Shown: positions 14,026 through 34,008 of the stretch, in pieces
Numbering within the stretch: position 1 is the first letter of the stretch
How the letters are laid out: each line of letters starts with the position of its first letter
Origin: Chloroflexota bacterium
GTDB lineage: Bacteria; Chloroflexota; Anaerolineae; Epilineales; SHYO01
DNA length: 63,745 bases
Direction: 5' to 3'
Assembly (NCBI GenBank): GCA_009692745.1
Contig: SHYO01000001.1
Location: 1-63,745, forward strand
Notes under the pieces: model-generated
The model's input: the letters and a program-made list of their open reading frames with translations, nothing else
Databases searched by the model: none
What the model was told of the DNA's origin: nothing
Made by a program: the position numbers and the translations under genes

Positions 14026-14862
14026 ATGGTGCGCAAACTGCAAGAAAGTAAAGTAGCTTATGCAGAGAGGCTGGGTCAGGTAGCAGCCCTGGCAGCTGAG
14101 TGCGCCGGCGACCTGGCGCTCTTTCTCTTTGGTTCCTACGCCACCGGGCAGACTACACCCCTGAGTGACCTCGATTTGGCGTATCTGCCTCTGAACAGCC
14201 TGTCTCAGCGGGAGATGCATGATCTGGATGTCAGCCTCTACCTGCGTTTAAGTCACATTCTGGCAAGCGACGATTTTAGCCTCATCAATCTACGCGAGGC
14301 GCCTGCCACTATAGCCTTCGCAGTGTTGACCCAGGGCAGATTGTTGGCGCCATCGGACCATCCGGCTTTGCAGGCATTTCGTGAGCGTATCTTCGCTCTC
14401 TACCCGGAAAGCCGCCGTCTGAAACAAGCTTGTCTACAGGTGGTTAACCATGAAAAAATTCTGGAGCAGCTTCACCGTCTAGATCTGGACTTGCACAAGC
14501 TGGAAAGTAAAATGCAGCTTACGGAAACCGCTTACCTGGCCGATAGCGATAGCCAGGATATCGTCGAGTGCCGTTTACAGACCGCCTGTGAAGCCTGCCT
14601 GAATATCGGCCACCATCTCATAGCCGCTCTGGGGCTGCAGCCGGCCGAGGAATATGCGACCATATTTCAGAGCCTGACGGCAGGCAGCATCCTGTCGCCG
14701 GCGGTAGCCGAGTCTATGGCCGATATGGCCCGCTTCCGCAACCTGCTGGTGCATCTATACTGGCGTATTGATGCGCGCCAGGTCTACCAATCCCTGCCGC
14801 AGCGCGTGGCCATATTGCGCGCTTTCACCGAAGAGATCATAACATACCTGGGATTGCTTTAA
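14026..14862 (+). CDS. Fused minimal nucleotidyltransferase (MNT) - HepT/DUF86 (HEPN) protein
   Basis: N-terminal GSYATGQTTPLSDLDLAYL (GS...DxD NTase motif). C-terminal FRNLLVHLYWRID carries the HEPN R-x4-H motif of DUF86. Confidence 0.75.
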   Translation: MVRKLQESKVAYAERLGQVAALAAECAGDLALFLFGSYATGQTTPLSDLDLAYLPLNSLSQREMHDLDVSLYLRLSHILASDDFSLINLREAPATIAFAVLTQGRLLAPSDHPALQAFRERIFALYPESRRLKQACLQVVNHEKILEQLHRLDLDLHKLESKMQLTETAYLADSDSQDIVECRLQTACEACLNIGHHLIAALGLQPAEEYATIFQSLTAGSILSPAVAESMADMARFRNLLVHLYWRIDARQVYQSLPQRVAILRAFTEEIITYLGLL

Positions 14863-18200: not shown

Positions 18201-21200
18201 GACTGTCGAATACCAGATTCTGTTGCGCAACAACGGCCCCTCAGTGGCCCACAACGTCCTGATCAGCGATGTCTTACCGATCAGCACCACGATCGTCAGC
18301 GCCGCTGTGAAGAACCGTTCCGGCTTCTGCCAATTCCAGGCCGGTGGCAACCAGGTGCATTGTAACCTGGGCGATGTGGCGGCGAACCCGGCGCCGGACC
18401 AGGAGATTATCGTCAGCATCAATGTCTTGATCTCGCCTGCCGCGCCCCAGGGTTCCGTCTTGACCAACCGGGCCCGCATCAGCAGCGATACCGGCAATGG
18501 GCCCATCATCCTGCCCGCGCCGCCGAACTTCGATGGCAAATCTGGCGCCGACAGTGTCCTGGCGCCTGATAGCGTGACCTTCTCCTTCCTGGATTTGATC
18601 CTGTCGCTCTTTGTCCAGGCGCAGGCTGACCTGCTCATCATCAAGGCCGATACCGGCGTGCCTGCGACGGCCGGATCCTTCACTACCTACCAATTGTTGG
18701 TGATCAACGCCGGGCCGTCCGATGCCCAGAACGTGGTTATCAACGATACGCTGCCGGTCGGCTTTACCTATGTAGACAGCCCCAGCGACTGTACCGCTAC
18801 CGCGGGAGGCTTCACCTGTAACCTGGGCACCCTTGCCGCGGGCGGCAGCCAGGTTGTGGCTGTAACCGTGAAACTGGATCCCAACGTGGCTGCTGGCAAT
18901 CACACCAACACCGCCACAGTCACCAGCAGCACCAACGATCCCAATGCGGCCAATAATACCGCTACCCAGGTCACCGCGGTGCTAGAAGTGGCCGATCTCT
19001 TCGTGCGCAAGTTTGGCCGCCCGGACCAGATCGTGGTAGCCGGCACGCTGATGACCTACACCATCTATGTGGATAACGTGGGCCCGTCGGACGCCCGCAA
19101 TACCGTAGTCACCGATACGCTTGATCCCGATGTGACCTTCGTCAGCTCCACCCCTGCGCCGAGTACGGTCGGACCCACCGATCCGCTCAACGGGGAAATA
19201 AATTACATCTACAACCTGGGCACTGTGGCTTTCAATACGCGGGCGCAGATCCAGGTGGTCGTGCGGGTGAACCGCAGCGTGGGACCGCCTTTTGACCCGA
19301 TAACCAACCGGGTTGAAGTGCGCAGCACGGCGCAAGATCCCAACCTGGCCAACAACTTTACCGAACGCGTCAACGCCGTGACGGCCCAATCGGATCTATC
19401 GATCAGCAAGACGGCCGAGGGCCAGAACGTACAGAATTCTGGTACCGCACCTGCGCCCATCGCCTTGCAGGCCAACAGCGTAACCGCCGGTACCAACATC
19501 ACCTACACCATCCGCATCACCAACAGCGGTCCGACCGACGCTTACAACGTCTTCATCCAGGACTTTGTACCTCCTGGCGTAGACACGCGCGCGGTCTCCA
19601 TCACGCGCGGTGATGGCCTGCCGGGTACCTGCCAATTTGGCGGCCTGGTGGATGGCAGTGTGCGCTGCAATATCGATACGCTACCTTTCACCACAACCGC
19701 CGGCCTGAACACCGCTACGATGGTGATTAACGGCTTTGTTGCCAGCTCGGTACCCGAAGGCTTCCTGCTCAATAACAACGCCCAGGTATTCAGCGATAAC
19801 CTGGATCCCAACAATTCCAACAACCTTGCCCAGAATCAGACCGTGGTCAACGCCCGCGCTGACCTGGTGATTACCAAGACGGACGATCCTGACCCGGTAA
19901 TTGCCGGCAACATCCTGAAGTACACTATTACCGTGACCAACTCCGGCCCGTCCGATGCGCTCAACGTCGTCGTGACCGACACCCTGCCGGTGGACGGCAA
20001 CGGTGTGGCCCAGGTAGTCTTCGGCAATAGCTCCTTGAAGAATACCTTCGGTGGGGAGCTATGCTCCGCCGATTTCATCCATCCCGAGCGCGTTACCTGT
20101 AACGTCGGTACGCTGACGGCCGGCCAGGTGGTTACTTTCGACATCCTGGTGCTGGTCAAGCCGAATGTGGTGCTGGATGGCGAGACTTTCCACAACATTA
20201 CCAACACGGCTGCCGTCAAGAGTAGCACCATTGATCCGGTGTCCAGCAACAATACTACCACCCAGACCACGAGGGTCGAGGCCCGCGCCGAGCTGACCAT
20301 CCAGAAGGTGGATTCGCCAGATCCAAACGCGGCCGGGTTGCGCGAGACCTACTTGATTAACTTCTCCAACACCGGGCCGTCCACCGCGCGCACCGTAGTG
20401 GTGACCGATACTTTGCCGTTGGGTGTCTTCTACTCCTATTGTTCTCCTGTCGATCCGAACGATATCGTTTCCTGCTCGGTAATTAGCGGCAACGGTGTAA
20501 CGGTACCCCAGGTGGTTCAACTGAACTCCATCAAGCGGGCCAACGTAACGCTCTACCAGAAACCGCCCGCTGGAGAGGAAGACGACCTGGATCCGGGTGA
20601 GAGCTACTCCTTCTTCCTGATTGCCGATGTTTCCCCCGGCTACGTGCTCGACGGTCGTGGCATCACCGATCCCGGTAATTTGTGCCAGGCTGCCTCTGTG
20701 GCTGCCGGCGGCTATCCGCACATCGCCGATAACCGGGCTACTATCACTTCGGAGACGCCGGATCCGCAACCGCTGAATAACTACGATGACGAGTGTACCC
20801 AGATCATCGGTTCCGCCGACCTGTCCATTACCAAGACCGACAGCACCGGGGACTTCCCGCATGGTGACCCATTGGCCCCTGGTGGCACGATTACGTATAC
20901 CATTGTGGTCATCAATAACGGCCCTTCCGATGCTGCCGATGTGCGGGTGCAAGACCAACTGCCCCAGGGTCTGATCCTGAATCCTGCCCTGGTCGTCGTT
21001 ACCGTCAGCAGCCCGCTGATTGATGCACCCACTGCACCCATCATCACCAAGCGTGACGACGGATTGATCACGGTGCTCCTGGGTCGCGTCAACACGTCTT
21101 CGACGATTACCCGTACGAATCCGACTACCGGGGGTGGCGCCACCGGTCCGGGTGGTCCAATTACGATCACCATCGTTACCCGCGTAGCGCTAACCACGCC

Positions 21201-23523
21201 GGCCGGCATACTTACCAACGTGGCTTTGGTAGATACGGTAAAGGATCTGCGTTTCCCCAACCGTACCCGGCCGACGGCTGATCCGAATCTGAACAACAAC
21301 ATTGCCGTGGAAACCACTACCATCCAGATACCGTCCATCAAGGTGAATAAGACCGTGTCGTTCAACGGTGTCTGCCCCGGCACGGACAATCCCGCCGTGT
21401 CTACGCCGAACCAGCCGGTGACTTTCTGCTACGAGATCACCAACACCGGCACCACCTTCTTGGATAATATCTTGGTGATTGACTCCTACAAGACGCGGCA
21501 AGGGACCATCAACTTCTTTGTGGACCTGATCACCTTTGGCGCCGATCCGGGATTGCCGGTTGCTCCTGGTGAGGTCGTCCGCCGCCAGGTGACCCTGCCG
21601 TCACCGTACTTCAGCGACTGCGGCACCAATGTCAACACGGTGTTTGTGATAGCTGATCCGGTGAACTCTGGTCGCACTCGCCTGGTCGATCTGCCTCAAG
21701 TTTTCAATGCTGATGTAGCTACGATCAACGTGCCTTGCGAAGGGGTAGATTACCGGTTGCAGGTACCCATCCTGGACAACAGCACCTGCCAGAGCTGGGT
21801 CACCGTGCAGAACTATGGTAACAAACCCACCAAGGCCATGATGGTCATCTGGGGCCAGCCGGGCTATTGTACACCGCAGTCCACCGGTCCTTTGAAGGTG
21901 GAATGCACCGGCTTGCTGCTCCCCGGTAGTTCCTGGGTCTTTGCCCCCAGCCTGCTGCCGGCCGGGTCCCATAGTGCGGTGGTTTACTCGCTGAACGCTA
22001 CTGACCTGATTCCTTCGGTGAACGGCACCCTGCTGCCCTTCTCCGACGTAGCCTGCCGCGCGCTGTACCAGTATGTGGTCTTCAATGACGATCAATGGTT
22101 TGAGTTTGACTACTCGTACCGCCACCAGGGCATCTACCGTGGTCCTATCGGCAACGCCGGGCAGCAATTGCTGCTGGACTTCGGCGCGCACCAGGGGCAG
22201 CCGATTGCGGTTGAAGTTAACCGCACCTGCCCTGGCGATGTGACCCCGGGCTTCAAGGCCAGCGCCGCCTACACCGGCATCTCGTCGGATATGGAAGGCG
22301 CGCCCGACTTGACCTTCGGTGGTTTCGCCTACTACGTGCCCTTGATCTACACCCAGGGGCAGGGCGGCTACAATACCACCCTCTGGATCCAGAACTCCGG
22401 CGACCAATGCACCTCCGTCGAGATCTACTTCCAGAAGCAGGACAACTGTTTGCACCCGACGATCGGCGAGATCCTGAGCCTGTCGCCGGGGGAGACCATC
22501 GGCTTCGACCCGGCTACGGTGTTGCCGGCGAACCCGCCCTGGCAGGGCAGCGCCTGGATTCGGGCTTCCAAGCCCTTGGGTATCGTGGTAGATGTCCGTG
22601 GTAAGAATATGTTTGGCTCGTATGTGGGTGTGCCGGCCCAGTTGCAGTCGACCTTCAATTCCACGCCGGAGTTTAGCTTCGGTACCGCGGTGAACTACGC
22701 CCCCTTGATCTACCGCGAGTTCAACGGCTGGCAGACGGGCATCCAGGTACAGAACCTGAGCTCGATCACCAACGCCAAGGTCAAGGTCTACTTCGTCGAC
22801 CACACCGGTGGCATCATTACCACAGTCGTCGACTGGATCTGCCCACGCGGCTCGCAGACGTTCTTCTTGCCGGTGATCAACGGGTTGCCGGGGAACTATG
22901 TCGGTGCGGCGCGCATTGAGTCTCAGAACTGGTGGACTCCTGGCGATCCGAGTGTAAAAGCTCCTAATGTGTTGTCAATAGTGAACGTGATTAAGTATGC
23001 CGACCAGAACAGCACCACCACCCCGCTGGAGATGGCGATGTACAACGCCCTACCGGAGTGGAAGAGCTTCGACTGGCAGGTTGGTACTCCTCCCGGTCTG
23101 TTGGGGATGGGCTTGTTAGGTGTGCCGTTGGTGACGAAGGGCGGGCTGAACCAGGTCTACAGCGAGCTGGCGATCCAGAACCTGAACCCGAACCCTGGCT
23201 TCACCGACTTTGCGATCTTCTTCTACGACCAGAACGGGTTACTCGACACGGTCTGCGAGAAGCTGAACGAGAAGCAGGTGGAGTACATCGACCTGTCCTC
23301 GTGGGGCTTCGTGCCCAACGGCTTCAACGGTTCGGTGGTGATCTCGGCCACGCGCACCACGCAGCCTGGTGGCTTCGGCCTGGCGGGGGTGGCGGTCGAG
23401 CGGGTAGGGCGGAGTTTGACCCAACCGCAGCTCCAGGGGGATGAGACCAAGGCGTATGAGATGTTCCCGATCTTCTTCCCCTTCACCTTCCCGGTGACGC
23501 CGACGTGTCCGGGACAACCGTAA
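15202..23523 (+). CDS. Giant secreted DUF11-repeat surface protein A (2773 aa) with shared four-repeat C-terminal region
   Basis: AAAGGAGG 8 nt before the ATG. Hydrophobic signal segment MLFLASLALLVLVG after a 40-aa basic leader. About 13 DUF11/TIGR01451 repeats (ADLxxTK...NxGPSxA...DxLP) and a C-terminal 730 aa homologous to giant B. Confidence 0.9.
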   Translation: MIPSSGKSKLFSQVADSVSATRKILGQWKPHLPSRRTMSKMLFLASLALLVLVGQAQPATQVHAQTNLFQIIWSADPPVFATAGKPILVRVQVQGFQASKHFDTAKIFTGSGGLPSALGTGPGFSIPVGNCTPDLPNNAETCSNFTIETNDQFGFYILYNIPPGWVGGTDLSRDLNTFFQARGDLAIDSNYAVNVGASADVAITKIGAQQARAGQPFTYKLVVDNYGPSNARNVTIEDDILSSQNVTLNSAPGCTVTGAGAQRHLSCALGTMTPNERITIDVSVTSNVDAIINNTAQVTTTDPDPVTFNNSAQTFTVVSAVADLAVTKTKQSPAGNLTAGGNVTYRLRVDNNGPSSAEGVILVDTLPAFARNVTFGAISGGAGSCIPGNTPITPATCNLGTIANAGFRQVDVTFQVDPSIPIDPATGATLSNQAQVLSNTFDPDNSNNSDQVTTTVVGSSALSMTKTSVPATVHAGDLFHYDIVIRNAGPSTAFDTIFHDTIPTTTFLVLNVSLASPPFSPFPSCTIGVGNGQIDCTIGALAPGATVTGTINLVAAASAIPGTYTNNVLVTSRSGSAVATAQTTIDRQADLEITKLDVPDPATAGSRIAYAITVINRGPSDAPSVTVADTLPAGFTFAGSTENCTAGAPGFNCNLGTIPANGSRNFLVNVDIASSVAPGNFTNSVTTASSAPEPNPDPHSNTATQITTVLGSAELTMTKLANPVATIVAGTNFTYTLVVDNFGPSDARTVTVTDLLPPEVTFVSATSTSTPAFICPPPAGNNLTCTLATLAANGRATIEVVVKANQNIASPFNPIRNCAEVNAVTPDPNRANNQACAFVTPASFADLAVFKSHTPEPVTAGQNITYTIRVTNTGPSDAHGVLVQDILPAGVTIDTKPIFCTTEVVCNLGDIAVGQTKVLTISVAASQFLPAGTKLHNVARTFSSSFDPNNTNDIYNDVANVITTANLSARKIAIQRNQFTETICGTPTGCTVNDIFVAGQTVEYQILLRNNGPSVAHNVLISDVLPISTTIVSAAVKNRSGFCQFQAGGNQVHCNLGDVAANPAPDQEIIVSINVLISPAAPQGSVLTNRARISSDTGNGPIILPAPPNFDGKSGADSVLAPDSVTFSFLDLILSLFVQAQADLLIIKADTGVPATAGSFTTYQLLVINAGPSDAQNVVINDTLPVGFTYVDSPSDCTATAGGFTCNLGTLAAGGSQVVAVTVKLDPNVAAGNHTNTATVTSSTNDPNAANNTATQVTAVLEVADLFVRKFGRPDQIVVAGTLMTYTIYVDNVGPSDARNTVVTDTLDPDVTFVSSTPAPSTVGPTDPLNGEINYIYNLGTVAFNTRAQIQVVVRVNRSVGPPFDPITNRVEVRSTAQDPNLANNFTERVNAVTAQSDLSISKTAEGQNVQNSGTAPAPIALQANSVTAGTNITYTIRITNSGPTDAYNVFIQDFVPPGVDTRAVSITRGDGLPGTCQFGGLVDGSVRCNIDTLPFTTTAGLNTATMVINGFVASSVPEGFLLNNNAQVFSDNLDPNNSNNLAQNQTVVNARADLVITKTDDPDPVIAGNILKYTITVTNSGPSDALNVVVTDTLPVDGNGVAQVVFGNSSLKNTFGGELCSADFIHPERVTCNVGTLTAGQVVTFDILVLVKPNVVLDGETFHNITNTAAVKSSTIDPVSSNNTTTQTTRVEARAELTIQKVDSPDPNAAGLRETYLINFSNTGPSTARTVVVTDTLPLGVFYSYCSPVDPNDIVSCSVISGNGVTVPQVVQLNSIKRANVTLYQKPPAGEEDDLDPGESYSFFLIADVSPGYVLDGRGITDPGNLCQAASVAAGGYPHIADNRATITSETPDPQPLNNYDDECTQIIGSADLSITKTDSTGDFPHGDPLAPGGTITYTIVVINNGPSDAADVRVQDQLPQGLILNPALVVVTVSSPLIDAPTAPIITKRDDGLITVLLGRVNTSSTITRTNPTTGGGATGPGGPITITIVTRVALTTPAGILTNVALVDTVKDLRFPNRTRPTADPNLNNNIAVETTTIQIPSIKVNKTVSFNGVCPGTDNPAVSTPNQPVTFCYEITNTGTTFLDNILVIDSYKTRQGTINFFVDLITFGADPGLPVAPGEVVRRQVTLPSPYFSDCGTNVNTVFVIADPVNSGRTRLVDLPQVFNADVATINVPCEGVDYRLQVPILDNSTCQSWVTVQNYGNKPTKAMMVIWGQPGYCTPQSTGPLKVECTGLLLPGSSWVFAPSLLPAGSHSAVVYSLNATDLIPSVNGTLLPFSDVACRALYQYVVFNDDQWFEFDYSYRHQGIYRGPIGNAGQQLLLDFGAHQGQPIAVEVNRTCPGDVTPGFKASAAYTGISSDMEGAPDLTFGGFAYYVPLIYTQGQGGYNTTLWIQNSGDQCTSVEIYFQKQDNCLHPTIGEILSLSPGETIGFDPATVLPANPPWQGSAWIRASKPLGIVVDVRGKNMFGSYVGVPAQLQSTFNSTPEFSFGTAVNYAPLIYREFNGWQTGIQVQNLSSITNAKVKVYFVDHTGGIITTVVDWICPRGSQTFFLPVINGLPGNYVGAARIESQNWWTPGDPSVKAPNVLSIVNVIKYADQNSTTTPLEMAMYNALPEWKSFDWQVGTPPGLLGMGLLGVPLVTKGGLNQVYSELAIQNLNPNPGFTDFAIFFYDQNGLLDTVCEKLNEKQVEYIDLSSWGFVPNGFNGSVVISATRTTQPGGFGLAGVAVERVGRSLTQPQLQGDETKAYEMFPIFFPFTFPVTPTCPGQP
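22222..23523 (+). repeat. 1.3-kb dispersed direct repeat, copy 1 (3' end of giant gene A)
   Basis: Collinear without indels with 42810-44111. Sampled 60-nt blocks show roughly 90-98 percent identity, against about 70 percent immediately upstream. Confidence 0.85.
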
Positions 23524-23624: not shown

Positions 23625-23670
23625 AAAAAGTCCCGGCACTGTAGTAGTTTCGCTACAGCCGGGACTTTTT
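23625..23670. terminator. Bidirectional intrinsic terminator
   Basis: aaaaa-gtcccggc..ctgtag-loop-ctacag-ccgggac-ttttt. A-run and T-run flank a 13-bp interrupted stem, 100 nt after the giant A stop. Confidence 0.75.
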
Positions 23671-23805: not shown

Positions 23806-24121
23806 GCGGCAACGGATGAAAAGCGGATAAGCGGATAAGCGGATAACTGCCACACGACCGCGCCTCCCCTCGCGGCAGTAGATAAATGGAGTATGCTCCA
23901 CGCCGCAGATCAGCGCATGACGGGCGCGCACCATCCGCTTATCTACTTTAATCGGCTGCCCCCTCCCCAGGCGGCAACGGATGAAAAGCGGATAAGCGGA
24001 TAATTGCCACACGACCGCGCCTCCCCTCGCGGCAGTAGATAAATGGAGTGTGCTCCACACCGCAGATCAGCGCATGACGGGCGCACACCATCTGCTTATC
24101 CACTTTAATCGGCTGCCCCCT
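23806..24121. repeat. Tandem duplication of a 151-159 bp non-coding unit (two copies plus a partial third start)
   Basis: Copy 1 at 23806-23964 and copy 2 at 23971-24121 differ by 6 transitions and one extra GCGGATAA 8-mer. Each unit contains a GCGGATAA tandem and a distal complementary ATCCGCTTATC arm. Confidence 0.85.
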
Positions 24122-24229: not shown

Positions 24230-25798
24230 TTACGGCGCTTTTCCCTGCCCGCTCAGCGTCCCGACGGCTTTCTCCAGCGCGGCGAGCCGCGCCTCCAGGC
24301 TCTGGTGCTCCTTTTGCAGCGCCTGGATTTGCTCTTGCTGGGCGGAGACCTGCACCTGCAGCGCCGAGATCTGCTGCTCTTTCTCTTGCACCAACGTGTA
24401 TAACGCCTGGCTGGCGGCCAGGGCCACCCCATCGCCATCTACCGTGCTGATATGGGTATTATCCTCGCCTACGCCGAAGGCCGCGTAGAAATCCTGGGCT
24501 ACGGGGCCGATGTGGCGGATATCCGCACTCTGGCTCTTGTAATTCCAGGTCGACATCGGCATTGCCGCCAGCCGCGCCAGGATCTCCCGCCCGTTCACGG
24601 GGGCGAAATTAGCTTTGAGCGCCTGATCCGAGGCGTTGGTCCAGGTGCCGCCCCGGCTCAGGTAGGCCCCGCTGGAGGTGGCTATCAATACGTTAGCCGG
24701 GATGGAGGGCGTGAAGGGGCCGGGACCGGTAGCCGCGCCTAGCCAGAGGCCGCCGTTGGCCCGCACGATAAACTGGTCGCTGCCGCCGGAATGGATCTCG
24801 GCATTGGTCGAGTCCGCCCAGATGAAGCTGCCCTGGTGGTCCGCTTTGGCCTGCCGGCCGGCGGCCAGGCTGTAATCTCCGGTCGCGGCATTTTCCCGTC
24901 CTCCGGGCACGGTGGCTCTCACACCGGCGGCGCTGTTGGAGATACCGCCGCCGATGGCGGCGTCTTCACCGTGCGCTACATTGGCAATGCCGCCGCCGAT
25001 GGCCGACAGCGTGCCGCTGGCCTGGTTATTCAACCCGCCGCTGATGGTAGATGATTCGCCGCTGGCCGCATTGCCTTGCCCTCCTCCCACAGTAGTATAA
25101 GTGCCGCTGGCGGTGTTGCTGGCGCCGCCGCTAATGGTGGCGTCCTGGCCCCCGGCGAAATTGCTCTCTCCGCCGCCGACGGTGGCGCGGGCGTTGCCGG
25201 CGCCATTGCCCGATCCGCCGCCCACGGTAGCCTGGGCGCCGTTGGCGCTGTTGCCCACCCCGCCGCCGATGGTAGCGCGCGAGCCGCCTGCCACGTTCAA
25301 CAATCCCCCGCCGATGGTGGCAAAATCTGCCGTCACCTGGTTGATGGCCCCCTGCTGCCCGCCCCCGCCGATGGAGGCGCCGATAGTGTTGGCCGCTACG
25401 CTGTTGCCGCTGAAGCCGCCGATCAGATTGGGCGCACTGGTGCTGTTGGTGGGCTCCAGCCGCAGGCCGCGCCGGCCGTTGACCCGCAGCTCCAGGGCCA
25501 GGTTGTCCGTCGTGCCCAGGAAATTCGTAATCGGATTGGTAGCGCCGTTCCCGCTCAGGCTCCAGCCGTCAATAGGACTTACGTAGGCGCCGGTTTGATG
25601 CCAGTGGCTGGTGACCAACTGCAGATCCTGCACGTCGATGCTGCCGTCCCGGTTCACATCGCAATTCTGATCGTAGGCGCCTGCGGGGACGCAACCGGCG
25701 CCGGCCGGGGCAGCCGGGGTCGCTGCGATAGCCGCCCCCCCTGAAGTTAACAAACACACCAGGCAAAGCGCAATTCCAATAATGATCGCCCTTTTCAT
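24230..25798 (-). CDS. Secreted tail-fibre-like trimeric fibre protein: dockerin-like loop, GGxxNxAxG beta-helix repeats, S74 intramolecular chaperone domain, coiled coil
   Basis: Signal peptide MKRAIIIGIALCLVCLL. DVNRDGSIDVQDLQLV. About 12 repeats of ATVGGGxxNxAxG. SDQALK (Ser-x4-Lys) followed by HIGPVAQDFYAAF, typical of Peptidase_S74. C-terminal heptad-rich QQISALQVQVSAQQEQIQALQKE. Confidence 0.8.
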   Translation of the reverse strand: MKRAIIIGIALCLVCLLTSGGAAIAATPAAPAGAGCVPAGAYDQNCDVNRDGSIDVQDLQLVTSHWHQTGAYVSPIDGWSLSGNGATNPITNFLGTTDNLALELRVNGRRGLRLEPTNSTSAPNLIGGFSGNSVAANTIGASIGGGGQQGAINQVTADFATIGGGLLNVAGGSRATIGGGVGNSANGAQATVGGGSGNGAGNARATVGGGESNFAGGQDATISGGASNTASGTYTTVGGGQGNAASGESSTISGGLNNQASGTLSAIGGGIANVAHGEDAAIGGGISNSAAGVRATVPGGRENAATGDYSLAAGRQAKADHQGSFIWADSTNAEIHSGGSDQFIVRANGGLWLGAATGPGPFTPSIPANVLIATSSGAYLSRGGTWTNASDQALKANFAPVNGREILARLAAMPMSTWNYKSQSADIRHIGPVAQDFYAAFGVGEDNTHISTVDGDGVALAASQALYTLVQEKEQQISALQVQVSAQQEQIQALQKEHQSLEARLAALEKAVGTLSGQGKAP

Positions 25799-25845
25799 TG
25801 GTTTTCCCTCTCTAGATATATCATACAAGGCAGATGGCCGGATAG

Positions 25846-25873
25846 GTAGGGGCGTACGGCCGTACGCCCCTAC
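25846..25873. promoter_or_regulatory. Perfect 28-bp palindrome upstream of the tail-fibre-like gene
   Basis: gtaggggcgtacgg|ccgtacgcccctac, 48-75 nt upstream of ATG 25798. Confidence 0.5.
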
Positions 25874-25982
25874 GGATGGTACATCGGTCATGACAGACTA
25901 CCATTGAGTGCTGGTGCAGGGGCCAGGTGTCCTCGCTTATCAATTTCTTAGCTGAGATTATCTCTCACTTATGCCTATCAGC

Positions 25983-26122: not shown

Positions 26123-27550
26123 TTACTGGGTGGGCCTGATTACCTCGCGGTACGCCTTGCGGAAACGGTCAAAGGCCAGCTTCCACTGCCCCTGGTTGTA
26201 GTGTTGTTGGGCGGCGGCGAATTCGGCTTCGGCGTTGTTCACCGGTTGGTTGGCCTGCAATTTCATCATATCGATGCTCGAGCGCACCGTGTCGCGCACC
26301 ACTTCCAGCAGGCCGCAACCTGGCGCCAGGGCGTCGCTGTTCGGGTTGCTATAGCCGGTGATGCAGACGGAACTGGGCAGCGCGAACAGCCCGACCGGGG
26401 AATCTGTCGGCGAGGCCAGGTTGGCTTCGATGTGGCCGCGCAGGTTCAGGTTGCGGAAGTTGAACAGGTTCGTATCGATATTGTTCGCCCGCACGGTGAG
26501 CAGGTCACCCAGGTCCATCAGGTCGGCGTGGATGATGCCGGTATTTTTGTAGGTAGCCTCCAGCTCGGCGTAGTTGATTTTCTTGTCACACCCCTGGTAA
26601 ATGCCTATGACTGCGTCTGCCGCCGCCGATACGGCTTTAGCGATGGTGTGGACCAAGCAGGCCGGCGCATTTGTGCCGCCGCCGACGATGGCGCAGGGCA
26701 CATACAGCAGAAGGCACAGGGAATCGGTCACATCGGTGGTGGTCTGGGCGATATTCTTCGCGATCAGCCCGGCCAATCCGACTCCGGCGGGGGTGCGCTC
26801 GTGGCCAAAGCGGCAGGTGACGCCCAGGCCGCTGTAATCCGGATTGGGGATCAGATCCACATCTTTGAGGTCCCCGGCGGCGTTGTTCTTCTCTTCCGCA
26901 TCCTTCAAGCTATCGTGGAGGATGGGCGCGGGGTTCGGTGTGGCGGTAGGTACCACATTGAAGTAATCCGGCTCTACCTTCGACTTGCCCGCTCGCGTAG
27001 CGAGACGCAACGCCTCTGCGGCCTGCAGCATATCTGGCCCGGGGGCCACCGTCTCCAGTTGGCCCGCTTTTTTAGCCTGCTCCTGGTAGGTCTTCAACAG
27101 GTGTACATTGTTTTTGAAGGTGGTGAAATTCGGGAAGGCGTGGTATAGGGCGTACACTTCCTCGGGGCTCAGGGAGAGGATGTTTTTTTGAGTTTGCAGA
27201 TACATATCATGGGAGAAACCGCCCCGCAGCAGGTTGCTGGTGGTCAAATCGTTGAGCAGTTCATCCAGGGTCTTGACCACAGCCAGAATCTCTTTGCGGT
27301 TGTTCTCCACGGCCTTGAGATCGGCTGCGGTGGGAGGCGCTATGCCCGGGGGATACACCATCCCGGGTGTGGGAGTGACCGCAGGGTCTTTAGCAGGGCC
27401 CACACCTGGCGTGGGGGTGCCGGTGACGGCAGCGGCGGCTAGAGCGCCCGGTGCGTTGCCGGTCGATGGGGCCCCCAGGCCCATAACTATAAAGGGCGCC
27501 ACCAGGAGCATCAAAGCTACCATAAAGACGGAGTTAAATTTGTTTAGCAT
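26123..27550 (-). CDS. Secreted Cys-rich protein of unknown family, paralog P1
   Basis: AGGAGG 8-9 nt before ATG 27550, signal peptide MLNKFNSVFMVALMLLVAPFIV and a Pro-rich linker. Shares the blocks PDYFxVVPT, ANNIDTNxFNFRNLxLR..IEANLAS, GCGLLEVVRDTV and GQWKLAxxRFRKAYRE with P2. Confidence 0.75.
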   Translation of the reverse strand: MLNKFNSVFMVALMLLVAPFIVMGLGAPSTGNAPGALAAAAVTGTPTPGVGPAKDPAVTPTPGMVYPPGIAPPTAADLKAVENNRKEILAVVKTLDELLNDLTTSNLLRGGFSHDMYLQTQKNILSLSPEEVYALYHAFPNFTTFKNNVHLLKTYQEQAKKAGQLETVAPGPDMLQAAEALRLATRAGKSKVEPDYFNVVPTATPNPAPILHDSLKDAEEKNNAAGDLKDVDLIPNPDYSGLGVTCRFGHERTPAGVGLAGLIAKNIAQTTTDVTDSLCLLLYVPCAIVGGGTNAPACLVHTIAKAVSAAADAVIGIYQGCDKKINYAELEATYKNTGIIHADLMDLGDLLTVRANNIDTNLFNFRNLNLRGHIEANLASPTDSPVGLFALPSSVCITGYSNPNSDALAPGCGLLEVVRDTVRSSIDMMKLQANQPVNNAEAEFAAAQQHYNQGQWKLAFDRFRKAYREVIRPTQ

Positions 27551-27631
27551 TCCGATTGTCCTCCTACGAATGCTCCATGTCGAGTGCTGGCGACGCTGAT
27601 CGTGAACCAAAACCCCTGGGTCCCCCGGTGG

Positions 27632-28966
27632 TTATTGAGCACGAACCGCCTCGCGGTAGGCTTTGCGGAACCGGGCGTAAGCCAGCTTCCACTGCCCTTT
27701 ATTGTACAGGTCCAACGCGGCCTGGTATTCGGTGCGCGCGTTGAATACATTCTGGTTGGCGCTTAGGCTCATCATATCAATGGTGCTTTGCACGGTGTCT
27801 CTGACCACCTCCAGCAGGCCGCAGCCGGCGGAAACGCCCTGATCGGTGGGGCTATAACCGGCGCCGTAGAGACAAATTGTGCCGGGCAAGCTGTAGAGCG
27901 CCATCGGATCGTCTTCATCGGAAGCCAGGTTCGCTTCGATACTAAGCCGCAGGTCCAGGTTGCGGAAGTTGAAAATGTTGGTGTCGATATTGTTGGCGCG
28001 GGAGATAAAGGCGCTGTTATAGTCGATCATGTCCGAATGGATAATCTTGGTATTGTCCAGGTTGGCCCTGATCCATGCTTCCGCGGTGAGATCCTGGCAA
28101 AGGATGAACCCGGCGGCCGTGGCCTTGAGTGCGTCGGCCGCGCCGTCCACAACGGCTTTGATGGGGCAAGTGATTATGCTGACATCGATGGTCCCGGGGA
28201 CCGGGCAGACAATGGCTTTGAGCTTGCATCCCAGTCCCAATCCGATAGAGACCAGAGAGAGGACGCCGGCCGCGATGCCAATGTCGTCGGGGATGCTCCA
28301 GTTATACAGGCGGGTGGGGCAGCCAATGCTGGTGGCATAGTCCGGCAGTTGTTCTTTGGACCCGCCGTTGATCTTGATGTCTCCGGCCTGGATGTTTTGC
28401 GCCTTGGCGTTCTGGTGGTCAATACCGGCGGTGGGCGGCACCGGCGTGGGCACGATGGTGAAATAGTCCGGCGATGGGCCGCCGCTGCGCGCCTGGGGCG
28501 AATCCTGCTGGGATTTTTCCGCCTGCGCCAGAATCTCCTGCAAGGCGGCGTTGCCATCGCGGAAAGCCTGGAACGCGGTGTGGTCCAGGTGGTGCACCAT
28601 GTTCGTCAGTTCCTCGGTGGTCATGTATTTAACGGTATACCGGTAATCCTCGGCGGCCGAAGGCTGGCCGCCCGCGGCGGTTATGGCCGCCGGCCCCAGC
28701 AGCTCTTGCACCGCAATGGCATTGTCGATCAGGTCCAGCATAAGGTGGCGCATTTCCTCCGGCGTTTGGGGATCGCCAGGAGCATTGGGCGCGAAGAGAG
28801 ATTGCGGATAGAGGCCGGGATTTATGGCCTGGGCTACTGATTGGCTGAATCCCAGAGTGGGGGCCAGCGTCCCGTTCCCATTGGGTGCGGCATAGTTTGC
28901 CGGCCCATTGGCGGCTATTGGTATTAGCAGCAATAGAGCCGAGAGGATGATTCCCAGCTTGCCCAT
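27632..28966 (-). CDS. Secreted Cys-rich protein of unknown family, paralog P2
   Basis: AGGAGG before ATG 28966, signal peptide MGKLGIILSALLLLIPIAA, 8 Cys, and the same conserved C-terminal blocks as P1. An 81-nt gap to P1 suggests an operon. Confidence 0.75.
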   Translation of the reverse strand: MGKLGIILSALLLLIPIAANGPANYAAPNGNGTLAPTLGFSQSVAQAINPGLYPQSLFAPNAPGDPQTPEEMRHLMLDLIDNAIAVQELLGPAAITAAGGQPSAAEDYRYTVKYMTTEELTNMVHHLDHTAFQAFRDGNAALQEILAQAEKSQQDSPQARSGGPSPDYFTIVPTPVPPTAGIDHQNAKAQNIQAGDIKINGGSKEQLPDYATSIGCPTRLYNWSIPDDIGIAAGVLSLVSIGLGLGCKLKAIVCPVPGTIDVSIITCPIKAVVDGAADALKATAAGFILCQDLTAEAWIRANLDNTKIIHSDMIDYNSAFISRANNIDTNIFNFRNLDLRLSIEANLASDEDDPMALYSLPGTICLYGAGYSPTDQGVSAGCGLLEVVRDTVQSTIDMMSLSANQNVFNARTEYQAALDLYNKGQWKLAYARFRKAYREAVRAQ

Positions 28967-29067
28967 ACTTTTTCCTCCTGAATGTAGTAAACCGGACTTA
29001 CCAGTGAGATATGCCCAACCCTCAGTTGGGCGTTAAGCCTGCAAGTGCCTGTGTCCGGGAACTCACC

Positions 29068-29083
29068 GCTGAGTACCCTCAGC
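29068..29083. promoter_or_regulatory. Single copy of the 16-bp palindrome GCTGAGTACCCTCAGC
   Basis: Exact match to the tandem-array unit core. It lies in the presumed leader of the P2-P1 operon. Confidence 0.6.
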
Positions 29084-29238
29084 ATGAGACTAACGTATTA
29101 GACCTTATCGGGATTAAGCAAGAGTGTGCCTGACGCATGTCGGCCCGGCCGCACAGTATTTCTATTTCCGATAATGTCTATTATACTCATATCTGAGAAG
29201 TAAATGAGAGATTTGATGAAATACCTTGGTTATGCATT

Positions 29239-29265
29239 AACGTGTAGATGCCCATAAAGATACGG
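29239..29265 (-). promoter_or_regulatory. CCGTATC-N16-CGTT motif copy D (ECF-type promoter candidate, minus strand)
   Basis: Minus strand reads ggCCGTATCtttatgggcatctacaCGTT, 273 nt upstream of P2 ATG 28966. Confidence 0.5.
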
Positions 29266-29313
29266 CCTGGCGCCGCATCAGGCAGAATTGATGCTTAATA
29301 ATCCGTTTTTTGC

Positions 29314-29340
29314 CCGTATCTTTAACCTGACCTTCACGTT
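29314..29340 (+). promoter_or_regulatory. CCGTATC-N16-CGTT motif copy A (ECF-type promoter candidate)
   Basis: gcCCGTATCtttaacctgaccttcaCGTT, 352 nt upstream of the Ig-repeat gene ATG. The flanking roughly 80 nt is also similar to the copy at 34141-34220. Confidence 0.5.
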
Positions 29341-29382
29341 CTAACCAAAAGGTTAAAATTCGATGAGAGTAGTTGGCGTGAT

Positions 29383-29423
29383 GCTGGCTGAGGGTACTCA
29401 GCTTGAGAGTACCCTCAGCCAGC
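29383..29423. repeat. 17-bp perfect inverted repeat with 7-nt spacer, built from the same palindrome motif
   Basis: gctggctgagggtactc-agcttga-gagtaccctcagccagc. Contains GCTGAGGGTACTCAGC, the reverse orientation of the unit. Confidence 0.85.
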
Positions 29424-29515
29424 ATACCATACCCGTGTGTGATGTCAAATCCATTCCCCTCAGCGTGATAGCTGGCCGGTCTACTACGCTGATATGTATT
29501 GCTGCGCCGTGCCCA

Positions 29516-29615
29516 CCAAGCTGAGTACCCTCAGCCCAAGCTGAGTACCCTCAGCCCAAGCTGAGTACCCTCAGCCCAAGCTGAGTACCCTCAGCCCAAG
29601 CTGAGTACCCTCAGC
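29516..29615. repeat. Perfect 5 x 20-bp tandem repeat, each unit carrying the palindrome GCTGAG-TACC-CTCAGC
   Basis: ccaagctgagtaccctcagc repeated five times without a mismatch. The array ends 76 nt upstream of ATG 29692. Confidence 0.95.
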
Positions 29616-29691
29616 CCGCAACGGCGGATCAGGAGTTGATGGACAAAGAGGCCAGGTTGGGCCAGGTAAGATTCTTCCCGAGGAGGTTCCT

Positions 29692-32600
29692 ATGATGTTC
29701 CTGCAGCGATCTGTAAAGCATGGTAAGCAACCCAGGCATAAGCTCACGGGTTTGGTTCCGGCTGGAGCCGCGGCCCTGGCCCGGCTCGCCGTCCTGGCCC
29801 TCTTGCTGACTCTCGGCCTGGCGCCGGTGAGCGCCGCGCCCGCTGGCCCCGATTTTCCTACCGGCCCGCTGGCAAATATTGCTACAACAACGACATTTTC
29901 TACACCATCGCCCGCCAGCCCTGCAACTAATTGTCAGCCTGTTTCTTTTCTCGTATCCGTTACCCGCAATGATACAACTGGAGCGGTGATTTCGGGGACC
30001 GTCTCCTTTACGGATAATTCCACCGCCATCAGCGGTTGTCAAAATTTGGCGCTAAACGGATCTGGCCAGGCGACCTGTAACGTTAGCGCATTGACAATCA
30101 GTGGATCACCGCATACGATTGCTGCCAATTATTCGGGCGCTCCTGCCGGCCCGGATACGTTGCAAGCATCCTCCAATAGCATAAATTATACAGTGAATAA
30201 GGCCACCACCACGATCACGGTGGTGGGCGCGCCCAACGCCTCGACCTACACGCAGAAGGTCACCTTCACCGCCACGGTCACCTCGGCCTGCGGCAATGTC
30301 ACGGGGGTGGTGTTCTTCAACGACAACGGCACGACTATCGGCACGGGGGCGGTCAATCCCGCCACCGGCATCGCCACGTTGGATACTACCGAGCTGGATG
30401 CGGGCACCCATAAGATCACGGTGGTTTACGGCGGGGATGAGGACCACTCGGCCAGTGACAACTACGCCTCGCCCTATTCTCAGGTGGTGAATAAGGCCAC
30501 CACGACGGTGGCCGTGACCAGCTCGGCCAACCCGTCGGTGTGGGGGCAGCCGGTAACCTTCCAGGCCACGGTCAGCACCGGGGCCAGCGCCGTGCCTTCG
30601 GGGGCGGTGATCTTCAAGGCTGACGGGATTTACATCGGCCAGGCCAACCTGAACGGTTCGGCCCAGGCCAGCTTCACCACGGCGGCCCTGGAGGTGGCGA
30701 ACCATCCGATCACCGCGGAATACGAGGGGGATCTGAACTTCTCCGGCAACACCGGCAATCTTTCCGGTGGCCAGACGGTGAATAAGGCCGACACCACCAC
30801 CACCGTCACGAGCGACAAGACGCCCACGGTGTATGGCGAGCAGATCACCTTCTTCATCACGATCTCGCCGGTACCGCCGGGGGCGGGAGCGCCGGGGGGA
30901 AATGTGTTGATCAAGGTGGACGGCAACGACCTGGTGACGGTGCCGGTGGGATTAGTTGGTACCGGCAAGGCGCAATTCCAGACCTCGCCCTTGGGGCCGA
31001 TCCCGGCCAGCGCCTCCGACCACAATATCACCGCATTCTACCAGGGGGATAGCCACTTCAACACCAGCGATAACAGCGCTACGCCTTACAAACAGCATGT
31101 GAACAAGGCGAACACGGCGACGCAGGTCATCAACGGCCTGACCACCTCGACGGTGGGGCAGCCGGTGAGCATCCTGGCGCAGGTGACCCCGGTAGCGCCG
31201 GGGTTTGGTACGCCCTCGGGTATGGTGGAGTTCCGCGACAACGGTAACCTGGTGGCCACAGTCCCCTTGGTCAATGGGCAGGTGAGCCAGGACATCACCT
31301 TCAGCACACCGGGGACGCATGTGGTCAACGCGAGCTACCTGGGGGACGCTAACTTCAATACCAGCAACGCCAACCAGGCGCCAGACCAGACGGTGACCAA
31401 GGCGGACACCACTGCGACGCTGACCAGCAGCGGGAACCCGTCGTTTGTAGGACAATTGATTACCTTCACGGTACAGGTGACTATCTCCGGCTCCTCGGCG
31501 GTGGCGTTTGTGCCGGGGGGGACGGTGGCATTCAACGATAATGGGATTCCGATAACGGGGTGCGGCAGCGTGCCATTGGTGGGAGGCACGGCGCAGTGCG
31601 CCACCTCGACGCTGACGGCCGGAGCGCACCCGGTGAAAGTAGTATACGGCGGGGATGCCAACTTCAACGGGACGACCTCAAACCAGGTAACACAGAACGT
31701 GAACAAGGGGAACACCACCACGACGGTGAGCAGTGTGCCGCCGGGCTCGGCAGTGCTGGGAGCGCCGGTGACCTTCACAGCAGTGGTGGCGCCCAGCAGC
31801 GGGACCGGTGTCCCCAGTGGGAACGTGAAATTCCTGGATGGGGGATCACCCATCGCCGGGTGTACCGCCCAGCCGTTGGCGGCCGGGCTGGCCACCTGTG
31901 TCATCTCGACGCTGGGGGCGGGGAACCACGCGATCACGGCGCAGTACCTGGGGGATACAAGCTACAATACCAGCGTCTCCAATCCGCCCTACCAGTTTAG
32001 CATCACGGCGGCGGGCAGCGCCACGGCGCTGGTAGGGAGCGCGAATCCGACCACCTATGGCCAGACAGTCTACTTCACGGCCACGGTAACGACGGGCAGC
32101 GGCACCCCCACCGGGCTGGTGACGTTCAAGGATGGGGCTGCCACTGTGGGCAGCGGTATCCTTGACGGTACCGGCAATGCCTATTTCTCCACCAACGCTC
32201 TGACGGTCGGCTTACATCCGATTTCGGCGGTCTACGGGGGAGACAACAACTTCGCCGGCAGCACCTCGAATACCATCAACCAACAGGTGAACCAGGCGAG
32301 CACCACCACTACGATCGCCAACTCGCCCAGCACGTCGGTCTTCGGCCAGGCGGTGCTCTTGACCGCGACGGTGACGATCAACCCGCCGGGGCTGGGTACG
32401 CCTACGGGACCGGTGACATTTACCGTAGGGGCGACTGTACTGGGGGTGGTAAACCTGAACGCTTTCGGCAAAGCTTTCCTGACGACGAGCACGATCCCGG
32501 TGGGCTTGAACCAGACGGTGACGGCTAGCTTCGGGGGGACTGCTAACCTGGCGGCGAGTAACGGCACGACCCTGCAGACGGTGAACGCGGCCAGCACCAC

Positions 32601-34008
32601 CACCACGGTGGTGGCAAATCCGAACCCTTCCCTGCCGGGGCTGGTGGTGACGTACACAGCCACGGTAGCGCCGGTGGCGCCGGGCGGGGGTACGCCGGTA
32701 GGGACGGTGAACTTCACGGAAGGCGGCAGTCTCTCCGGTTGCGGCGCCGTGCCGCTGGTGGCGGGTGTGGCGACGTGCAGCACCACATACGGAGCGGCCG
32801 GTTCGCACACGATCACGGCGACGTACACCCCTGGCAACGGCAACCACAATGGCAGCAACGGTCAGGTAATTGAGGACGTGAGCGACACCCCGGCGGACCT
32901 GTCGGTGAGCGTGACGGATGCGCCCGATCCGGTATTGGCGGGGCAGAATGTGACCTACACCATCCAGGTGGTGAATACGGGACCTGGGCAAAATGTGACC
33001 CTGGTGAATACGCTGCCGGCGGGGGGCACGTTTGTGTCGATCAGCGCGGGAGCATGGAGCTGTACCACCCCGGCAGTGGGCAGCGGCGGCGTGGTGCAGT
33101 GTACCCGGTCGCCTTTGGGCACGAACGCCAGCGAGAGCATCGTGGTGGTAGTGAATGTGCCCCTGTCGACGCCGGCCGGGTCGATCTTCACGGACCAGGT
33201 GCAGGTGAGCGGCAACCGGCCGGATACGGACCCGAGCAACAACACGGCCCTGGCCGAGACGACGGTGTACCGCTCGCCGCGCGGAGACTGTAACGCGGAC
33301 GGGGCGGTGAACCGCGGGGATATCTTCTCGATCGTGGCGAAGATCTTCGACACAAGCGTTCTGACGCCGGTGCCCAGCCCGTCGGCCTGCGATTCGAACC
33401 AGGACCGGCTGCTGGATGCGGGGGACCTGCCCTGCACGGCTTTGATCATGTTTAACGGGCCGGTAGCCTGCAGTGCAGCGAACCAGACGCGCGTACCCGA
33501 TGCGCTGTCGCTCTTCATGGGCACAGCCCTGGCGGGACCGGCTCTGAGTTTGCCGCAGCAGTTGACCCCGCATGGCAACGGGCAGGTGGCGGCGCCGGTG
33601 AGCTTCACCGGGAATGGGAAGCAGATCAGCGCGGTGGTGTTCGCGGTGGATTACGACGCGCAGCAGGTGAGCTTTGATGGCGCCGACCTGGACCACAACG
33701 GCATCCCGGATGCGATCAGCCTGAATGTGCCGGGAGATTTCATTGTCTCAGTGGAAACGGATCTGGCGCACCACCGGTTGAACATCTCGGTGGCGGACAT
33801 CTCCTCGCCATTGCGGGTATTGGCGGATGGGGCGCTGCTGACGATTGGGTTCCAGAGTCTCAACGCGAACCCCGCTGGAGCAGCCATCCCGGTGGCATTT
33901 AGCCAGCAGCCGCGGGCCTCCTTTGGGGACACGGCGGGTCACAGTGTGTTGGGCCAGGCGACCCCGGCCAGGATGCACCAGCTCTATCTACCTTTCGCCA
34001 GGCGATAA
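29692..34008 (+). CDS. Secreted Ig-like-repeat protein (1438 aa) with one DUF11 repeat, a dockerin-like module and a cohesin-like module
   Basis: GAGGAGG before the ATG and signal peptide LAVLALLLTLGLAPVSA. About ten repeats of roughly 100 aa of the type NKATTTxxV...VTFTATV...G.V.F.DNG...HxITAxYxGDxNF (bacterial Ig-like group 3). Then ADLSVSVTDAPDPVLAGQNVTYTIQVVNTGP. Confidence 0.85.
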   Translation: MMFLQRSVKHGKQPRHKLTGLVPAGAAALARLAVLALLLTLGLAPVSAAPAGPDFPTGPLANIATTTTFSTPSPASPATNCQPVSFLVSVTRNDTTGAVISGTVSFTDNSTAISGCQNLALNGSGQATCNVSALTISGSPHTIAANYSGAPAGPDTLQASSNSINYTVNKATTTITVVGAPNASTYTQKVTFTATVTSACGNVTGVVFFNDNGTTIGTGAVNPATGIATLDTTELDAGTHKITVVYGGDEDHSASDNYASPYSQVVNKATTTVAVTSSANPSVWGQPVTFQATVSTGASAVPSGAVIFKADGIYIGQANLNGSAQASFTTAALEVANHPITAEYEGDLNFSGNTGNLSGGQTVNKADTTTTVTSDKTPTVYGEQITFFITISPVPPGAGAPGGNVLIKVDGNDLVTVPVGLVGTGKAQFQTSPLGPIPASASDHNITAFYQGDSHFNTSDNSATPYKQHVNKANTATQVINGLTTSTVGQPVSILAQVTPVAPGFGTPSGMVEFRDNGNLVATVPLVNGQVSQDITFSTPGTHVVNASYLGDANFNTSNANQAPDQTVTKADTTATLTSSGNPSFVGQLITFTVQVTISGSSAVAFVPGGTVAFNDNGIPITGCGSVPLVGGTAQCATSTLTAGAHPVKVVYGGDANFNGTTSNQVTQNVNKGNTTTTVSSVPPGSAVLGAPVTFTAVVAPSSGTGVPSGNVKFLDGGSPIAGCTAQPLAAGLATCVISTLGAGNHAITAQYLGDTSYNTSVSNPPYQFSITAAGSATALVGSANPTTYGQTVYFTATVTTGSGTPTGLVTFKDGAATVGSGILDGTGNAYFSTNALTVGLHPISAVYGGDNNFAGSTSNTINQQVNQASTTTTIANSPSTSVFGQAVLLTATVTINPPGLGTPTGPVTFTVGATVLGVVNLNAFGKAFLTTSTIPVGLNQTVTASFGGTANLAASNGTTLQTVNAASTTTTVVANPNPSLPGLVVTYTATVAPVAPGGGTPVGTVNFTEGGSLSGCGAVPLVAGVATCSTTYGAAGSHTITATYTPGNGNHNGSNGQVIEDVSDTPADLSVSVTDAPDPVLAGQNVTYTIQVVNTGPGQNVTLVNTLPAGGTFVSISAGAWSCTTPAVGSGGVVQCTRSPLGTNASESIVVVVNVPLSTPAGSIFTDQVQVSGNRPDTDPSNNTALAETTVYRSPRGDCNADGAVNRGDIFSIVAKIFDTSVLTPVPSPSACDSNQDRLLDAGDLPCTALIMFNGPVACSAANQTRVPDALSLFMGTALAGPALSLPQQLTPHGNGQVAAPVSFTGNGKQISAVVFAVDYDAQQVSFDGADLDHNGIPDAISLNVPGDFIVSVETDLAHHRLNISVADISSPLRVLADGALLTIGFQSLNANPAGAAIPVAFSQQPRASFGDTAGHSVLGQATPARMHQLYLPFARR
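33283..33440 (+). other. Dockerin-like double Ca-binding loop module inside the Ig-repeat protein
   Basis: GDCNADGAVNRGDIFSIV ... CDSNQDRLLDAGDLPC. Two D-x-N/D-x-D-G/x...D loops about 35 aa apart. Confidence 0.5.
33541..33915 (+). other. Cohesin-like beta-sandwich module at the C-terminus of the Ig-repeat protein
   Basis: VAAPVSFTGNGKQISAVVFAVDYDAQQVSFDG...LLTIGFQSL resembles the cohesin pattern (v.v.v......i.g..f.l.YD...l). Confidence 0.45.

Follow-up and report, generated by a model that had tools for sequence, protein, structure and literature searches.

Among described repeats, the closest counterparts of the element reported here are the REPs and REPINs of Proteobacteria (E. coli, Pseudomonas, Stenotrophomonas) and their associated RAYTs. 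These are short extragenic hairpins found as singletons, as inverted dimers folding as one long hairpin and as clusters; their sequence types vary between close genomes while the hairpin is kept, they often lie near gene ends, and they are present or absent at orthologous sites (PMC3733652, PMC2817692). Two superfamilies are distinguished by their tags: the RAYT-associated GTAG superfamily carries an unpaired GT(A/G)G at one foot of the hairpin (PMC3733652, PMC2817692), and the CGTC superfamily has a CGTC tag at one end and a stem of 8–9 bp. BIMEs are composite clusters of palindromic units within one spacer, in which REP orientation alternates and the linkers are defined (PMC2817692). The only REP family from Chloroflexi in Di Nocera et al. 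2013 is GTAG-23 of Thermomicrobium roseum, which is largely clustered. The 16-mer described below was absent from the papers that we searched, and we found no paper linking RAYTs or REPs to Anaerolineae.

The locus lies on a chromosomal MAG contig of a Chloroflexota bacterium, whose whole length of 63,745 nucleotides (63.7 kb) is hereafter the window. Besides mutS, mutL, a class A PBP gene and an alpha-2-macroglobulin gene, it carries three giant DUF11/Ig-repeat surface-protein genes. Its source lineage is deep, with MutL and P1 sequences that are at most 50% and 40% identical, respectively, to those in other records. The features relevant to this work are the following.

28967–29691, no strand: divergent spacer of 725 bp, as delimited by the ORF list (27632–28966, minus, and 29692–34008, plus), containing all the intergenic hairpin copies of the window.
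27632–28966, minus strand: left flanking gene EXR62_00085, encoding a secreted protein of 444 aa.
29692–34008, plus strand: right flanking gene, encoding an Ig-repeat surface protein of 1438 aa with ten Big_3_5 Ig-like domains and one DUF11.
29068–29083, plus strand: singleton, an exact match to GCTGAG-TACC-CTCAGC, 101 nt upstream of the ATG of the minus-strand gene.
29381–29425, no strand: head-to-head dimer, formed by a 20-nt reverse unit (29386–29405) and a truncated forward unit (29407–29425).
29516–29617, plus strand: head-to-tail array, CCAAGCTGAGTACCCTCAGC (TRF period 20, 5.1 copies, score 204).
29597–29620, plus strand: final array unit and its 3' flank, CAAGCTGAGTACCCTCAGCCCGCA, in inverted repeat with 29382–29405.
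54969–54984, minus strand: copy with one mismatch, GCTGAGTACCCTCAAC, in frame (VEGTQ) inside the alpha-2-macroglobulin gene.

The Ig-repeat gene is preceded by a GAGGAGG ribosome-binding site; its product begins with a signal-peptide-like N-terminus and retrieved no record from independent contigs with either of two alternative start codons. On the other side, neither Pfam nor NCBIfam has a family that matches the 444-aa protein, which shares 34% identity with the product of the adjoining gene (26123–27610, 495 aa). Both secreted proteins (26123–28966, minus strand) are paralogues in an uncharacterised family for which there is no Pfam or NCBIfam model; its homologues in two other MAGs (Methylomirabilales and Anaerolineae) have consecutive locus tags, suggesting that they are also tandem paralogues.

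The first-pass annotation of this DNA described the spacer as packed with a palindrome, and this holds: we found seven exact copies of GCTGAGTACCCTCAGC, at 29068 (plus), 29387 (minus) and 29520, 29540, 29560, 29580 and 29600 (plus), together with one truncated copy. Allowing for up to two mismatches, the contig contains eight matches against 0.02 expected, a number reached in none of 100 shuffles. The tandem array of five 20-bp units, reported as free of mismatches, showed 100% matches and no indels with TRF. Likewise, the inverted repeat placed at 29383–29423 is present, although its arms measure 19 nt instead of 17 (29381–29399 and 29407–29425); they are 100% complementary and separated by a 7-nt loop. 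The truncated unit of this dimer is GAGTACCCTCAGCCAGCAT, with the truncated 16-mer copy at 29407–29419. The true repeat unit in the source genome spans 20 nt, CAAGCTGAGTACCCTCAGCC, and it has a reverse match at 29386–29405. Moreover, positions 29597–29620 and 29382–29405 are 96% complementary over 24 nt, which implies that the ancestral unit was longer than the 16-mer. Within the array, the GCTGAG and CTCAGC half-sites alternate at 10-bp steps. All five units have the same orientation, so that the alternation typical of BIMEs does not occur, and they abut with constant linkers, here and elsewhere of 1 or 4 nt, leaving no unique spacers such as those of a CRISPR array.

Pattern and hairpin scans of the remaining spacers of the 63.7-kb contig revealed neither the palindrome nor any other recurring hairpin with a 6-bp stem, and there is no copy upstream of the two other giant DUF11 surface-protein genes. 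The intragenic copy at 54969–54984, for which we estimate a chance expectation of ca. 0.0015 at up to one mismatch, is either a unit of the repeat family lodged in a gene or a coincidence. The spacer between the convergent genes 15202–23523 (plus) and 24230–25891 (minus), of 707 bp, contains another type of repeat (23829–24121), consisting of 1.9 copies of a 157-bp unit with 95% identity, each opening with two to three AAGCGGAT(A) motifs and having no match in Rfam. Separately, a single ORF of 278 aa (14026–14862, plus strand) joins an N-terminal MNT-type nucleotidyltransferase and a C-terminal HepT RNase domain, which usually form a two-gene toxin-antitoxin pair.

The window comes from a metagenome assembly, and perfect tandem repeats are prone to errors in assembly; the number of units in the array, as distinct from its presence, might therefore reflect a short tandem repeat that collapsed or expanded when the MAG was assembled from short reads. 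An independent Logan contig, identical across the copy at 29068, indeed breaks within the spacer, at 29126. We consider such an artefact highly unlikely, because the array, of 102 bp, is below the typical read length, the 725-bp spacing recurs in an ENA contig from another assembly, and similar arrays occur in independent assemblies from other genomes (L101, L026 and L150, below).

As RNA, a single unit folds with -8.5 kcal/mol, and the array forms either five hairpins or one nested rod, with -47.7 kcal/mol for the plus strand and -72 for the minus strand, bearing out the earlier proposal of five consecutive 6-bp hairpins, with out-of-register pairing as a further possibility. The inverted dimer (29381–29425) reaches -39.1 kcal/mol as RNA and -23.7 as DNA (z about -9). 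The singleton, which on the minus strand reads GCUGAG-GGUA-CUCAGC, persists as a hairpin in the fold of the minus-strand leader. These energies are far below those of shuffled controls (z from -6.9 to -11), as would be the case for a small structured RNA or a known cis-regulatory RNA. Nevertheless, the fold signal derives wholly from the repeats, and neither the window nor any of eight carrier loci had an Rfam match at or above the gathering threshold, the top sub-threshold hits being microRNA models on the repeat. The scan of 28800–29800 did not yield any terminator-like site with a T-run, even though the source genome uses canonical terminators (for example, at 23625–23670), and the units occur elsewhere in both orientations relative to transcription (L089, L101 and L026 versus L112 and position 5591 of L150). 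A structured RNA is thus the least probable of the readings considered here.

All copies had also been placed downstream of two divergent promoter-like motifs. Our scan did not sustain this: it detected two promoter-like sites, where 0.9 ± 1.0 would be expected, and these two overlap the inverted repeat. The position of these sites bears on whether the array, whatever its origin, has been put to use. A repeat of REP-like origin could have been co-opted in the 5' leader of the Ig-repeat gene, where it would tune expression through mRNA stability, a roadblock or RNase processing, with the number of units acting as a slippage rheostat, i.e. a contingency locus. There is a parallel in Haemophilus influenzae, where the promoters of the adhesin genes hmw1A and hmw2A depend on the number of 7-bp repeats located upstream; in both cases, tandem repeats lie between the promoter region and the start codon of a large adhesin gene, although the unit here is a 20-nt hairpin that occurs also at unrelated loci. 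The promoter-like site at 29403–29430 would indeed put the array in the leader, where 74 nt separate its end from the ATG of the Ig-repeat gene and, in the predicted fold, it does not pair with the GAGGAGG ribosome-binding site. Co-option would also agree with the very stable structures formed from either strand, with the perfect identity of the units, which implies recent change, and with the variation of related arrays between close genomes. Conversely, the promoter matches are at chance level, no variation in copy number was observed, the sole other assembly has a spacer of equal length, the two other giant DUF11 genes of the window have no copy upstream, and equivalent arrays follow housekeeping genes in other genomes. 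We regard co-option as unlikely overall, although the clustering beside a giant surface-protein gene could reflect it.

We then scanned one genome per species for the exact 16-mer, obtaining at least 103 loci. Among the matches listed, most were single, from unrelated phyla and typically inside long ORFs, and we took them as due to chance; the source contig was not among them, and several Chloroflexota MAGs stood out. For instance, Anaerolineae Zod_Metabat.1288 (L089) has five copies in 8 kb, distributed over three sites: after a MOSC gene, after a gene for a KaiC-like ATPase and across the stop codon of secA. Anaerolineae MO53 (L101) contains three tandem units between a 641-aa gene and a HIT gene, and Chloroflexota AS06rmzACSIP_429 (L026) contains four, partly degenerate, after a CBS/ACT gene and with a POR-like gene next. 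A scan of metagenomes with a 17-mer added five loci (L136, L127, L112, L105 and L119), among them L112, with one copy immediately after rplI, for ribosomal protein L9. Further neighbours of the copies encode an ABC-2 permease, a HEAT-repeat protein and a membrane transporter. Most copies are no more than a few bases from a stop codon, between co-directional genes. In contrast, the 16-mer produced six single matches in viral contigs, which is the chance level, and the tandem pair GCTGAGTACCCTCAGC-N{0,8}-GCTGAGTACCCTCAGC produced none in metagenome contigs or viral contigs.

We also considered that the units might have a fixed orientation relative to transcription, since the GGUA loop is in the mRNA of L089, L101 and L026; L112 and the unit at 5591 of L150 have the opposite orientation, and the idea was dropped. 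As to GC skew, the TACC form is on the C-rich strand in approximately six of seven loci, which, from short and coding-biased windows, is a hint at most.

The palindrome is one sequence type of a broader set of hairpins, which we delimited with a generic scan for perfect 6-bp stems enclosing an NGTA or TACN loop. L150, to which L089 is most closely related, has another stem, G-GCGTTG-(A/G)GTA-CAACGC, in five tandem 17-nt units, plus an inverted CGGTTG-TACT-CAACCG located 22 nt upstream of the array and one single unit elsewhere. In L030 (Caldilineales) and L119, the stems CCCAAG, CCTGAG and GCTGAG are found with the loops AGTA, TGTA and CGTA. L119 includes an exact copy (919–934) in the part of a Big_7-domain gene that encodes the signal peptide (..LSGLSTLSRS..), as well as four related hairpins in the non-coding DNA downstream. 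Carriers hold five to seven hairpins in 4–17 kb, versus 0.8 per 100 kb for unrelated loci totalling 1.14 Mb. In 39 copies from 11 loci, the loop GTA and the G-C pair that closes the stem are invariant, and a G directly precedes the hairpin in 37. Covariation (double changes in five of six pairs, with 100% pairing) was discarded as evidence in favour of the enrichment figures, because the sequences had been selected as perfect hairpins, which makes the argument circular.

In L150, we also noticed a composite repeat of ca. 125 nt (567–690 and 5590–5713, 79% identity between copies), composed of an NGTA unit followed by TTTAGGCA...GCAGAGGT and by a hairpin with a 15-bp stem, whose apical part differs between the copies. 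This module, into which both hairpin sites of L150 run on, might carry the hairpin unit in the manner of a MITE. Comparison of its sequence with the flanks of the units in the window uncovered only a weak common GGCAC.

These distributions bear on the proposal that the spacer is a control region for the Ig-repeat and P2-P1 genes. A dedicated operator array, in which a dimeric repressor would bind the 16-bp palindromes cooperatively on one helical face and control the divergent P1/P2 and Ig-repeat genes, would account for the 6-4-6 near-palindrome, of a size typical for a helix-turn-helix dimer, for a period of 20 bp, close to two helical turns, and for the confinement of every intergenic copy of the window to one spacer. 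However, operators of this type serve one class of genes and have conserved arms around a free centre, and we see the reverse: the asymmetric centre (TACC/GGTA) is conserved, the stems change between genomes, and the neighbouring genes are unrelated. In related genomes, the palindrome is scattered over unrelated spacers and shows no tie to Ig-repeat or P1/P2 genes, a result that the first-pass annotation itself had named as contrary to its reading; copies abut or overlap the stops of unrelated genes and are missing at orthologous sites of close relatives (see below). Neither is the phasing conserved, since the period of 20 nt seen in the window gives way to 28 nt in L127 and to 17 nt, formed by the 16-mer and an added C, in L089, L101 and L026. 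Additionally, domain annotation of the window neighbours did not identify any regulator gene adjoining the spacer, and the two other giant DUF11 genes lack the site. We thus find an operator array very unlikely.

Genome comparisons among relatives of L089 showed that the units are recent insertions. The SecA proteins of these relatives are 93% (L150, L151), 84% (L152), 83% (L153, L154), 71% (L155) and 69% (L156–L160) identical to that of L089, and they share the gene order secA, a 124-aa gene, KaiC-like ATPase, two small genes, adenosine deaminase, MOSC, a 625-aa gene and HIT. The 16-mer was not found in the 176 kb of these relatives (L150–L160), even at two mismatches. In the alignments, the palindrome blocks of L089 and L101 are insertions of 17–70 nt, and the same sites are empty in the relatives, indicating that the blocks were inserted recently. 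Altogether, five sites that are occupied in one genome are vacant in its relatives, i.e. the insertion polymorphism between close genomes that is seen with REPs: secA, the ATPase, MOSC, 641-aa/HIT and a divergent spacer in L150. In the latter, which has a setting like that of the window, the array and its inverted copy are inside an insertion of ca. 285 nt that is missing from L152 and L153. Insertions also affect gene ends: secA of L089 stops four codons short of its L150 counterpart, at a TGA contributed by the first unit, and the stop codon of the ATPase gene falls within a variant unit. L136 is orthologous to the secA site of L089 and its units differ (GCTGAAGCCTCAGC, GCTGAGTACCCTCAGC, GCTGAGGCTTCAGC), which shows a fast turnover of the blocks. 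The recent expansion previously suggested from the perfect identity of the units in the window is in keeping with these related arrays, given the different make-up in L089 and L136 and the absence of the L150 array from relatives. For the window itself, there is no comparable spacer among relatives, since the nearest homologues are at most 40% identical for P1 and at most 50% for MutL.

Dispersal over unrelated spacers, as in REPs, was seen in L089 (three sites in 8 kb) and in L150, L030 and L119 (several each), and for the source genome, whose 63.7 kb contain one spacer with the element and one intragenic near-copy, it is presumed from these. The tags of known REPs are nevertheless missing. 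None of the 39 copies has GTAG within 8 nt, the few GTGG are at the chance level, and a single conserved G is found instead; likewise, no CGTC lies beside any copy, and the stem is of 6 bp. Whereas REPs carry a tag at the foot, the Chloroflexota element keeps its loop GTA, its closing pair and a single 5' G constant. The unit is also shorter, with 16–17 nt against 20–40 nt, and head-to-tail arrays dominate, whereas head-to-tail dimers are rare according to Di Nocera et al. 2013. It resembles BIMEs in forming composite clusters of palindromic units in one spacer, and differs in that the array is strictly head-to-tail, with 1- or 4-nt linkers. With GTAG-23 it has in common the phylum and the clustering, and it is set apart, by description, by lacking the GTAG tag that defines that family. 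From its sequence, therefore, we read the element as working like a REP yet lying outside the GTAG and CGTC superfamilies, because of the missing tags and also of its shorter unit and head-to-tail preference.

We conclude, with a probability of roughly 0.7, that the spacer is a local pile-up of a REP-like selfish hairpin repeat and not a switch purpose-built for its neighbours. The palindrome would be one sequence type of a 17-nt hairpin family of Chloroflexota (Anaerolineae and Caldilineae-type MAGs), with a unit formed by an unpaired G, a variable 6-bp stem closed by G-C, an NGTA loop and the complementary stem. Such units would insert into spacers, very often at or near a stop codon, and multiply locally to give inverted dimers and head-to-tail arrays; the spacer of the window, with its singleton, head-to-head dimer and five-unit array, would be one such cluster. 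For the perfect array of five 20-nt units, the most likely origin is slippage during replication, or unequal exchange, starting from a single 20-nt unit. The constant loop, closing pair and 5' G, combined with free stems, suggest that a folded single strand is recognised by a lineage-specific protein. By analogy with REP/RAYT, the recognising or mobilising protein, postulated from this pattern of conservation, is possibly a HUH/Y1-type enzyme, and no RAYT/Y1 transposase was identified in the window or in the annotated carrier loci. Any effects on neighbouring genes would be a by-product of stable leader hairpins or cruciform-prone DNA. More speculatively, the G-N6-NGTA-N6' hairpins might be the cis-sites of a hitherto undescribed, hairpin-specific mobilisation system of Chloroflexota, distinct from GTAG/RAYT and CGTC, which inserts at stops, sometimes supplying the TGA, and amplifies head-to-tail, with the array of the window co-opted as a copy-number-variable switch of the Ig-repeat adhesin gene; we give this full scheme low odds.

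Reading the spacer as a pile-up of selfish repeats removes from the annotation of this contig a tempting but unsupported operator array. It also outlines, in a poorly studied phylum, a compact family of hairpin repeats whose conserved parts differ from the tags of the known REP superfamilies, which builds the head-to-tail arrays that are rare for REPs and whose insertions can rewrite gene ends, as with the repeat-derived TGA of secA in L089. A cognate enzyme, should there be one, would be a new protein that recognises hairpins in DNA or RNA. The arrays would also serve as strain markers for uncultured Anaerolineae.

The scan for the 16-mer also retrieved two recurrent contexts in other bacteria. 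In the Spirochaetales MAG CSMAG_3007, it is central in a repeat of ca. 200 nt present on four contigs (L008 1655, L017 3874, L055 789 and L086 4750), which has no Rfam match and is seemingly unrelated to the Chloroflexota family. In Halieaceae-type genomes of several genera (L029, L041, L090, L093, L096, L126 and L139), it appears in the conserved context GGCTAAYGCTGAGTACCCTCAGCCCCTGGCCYACT, which suggests a conserved gene or RNA.
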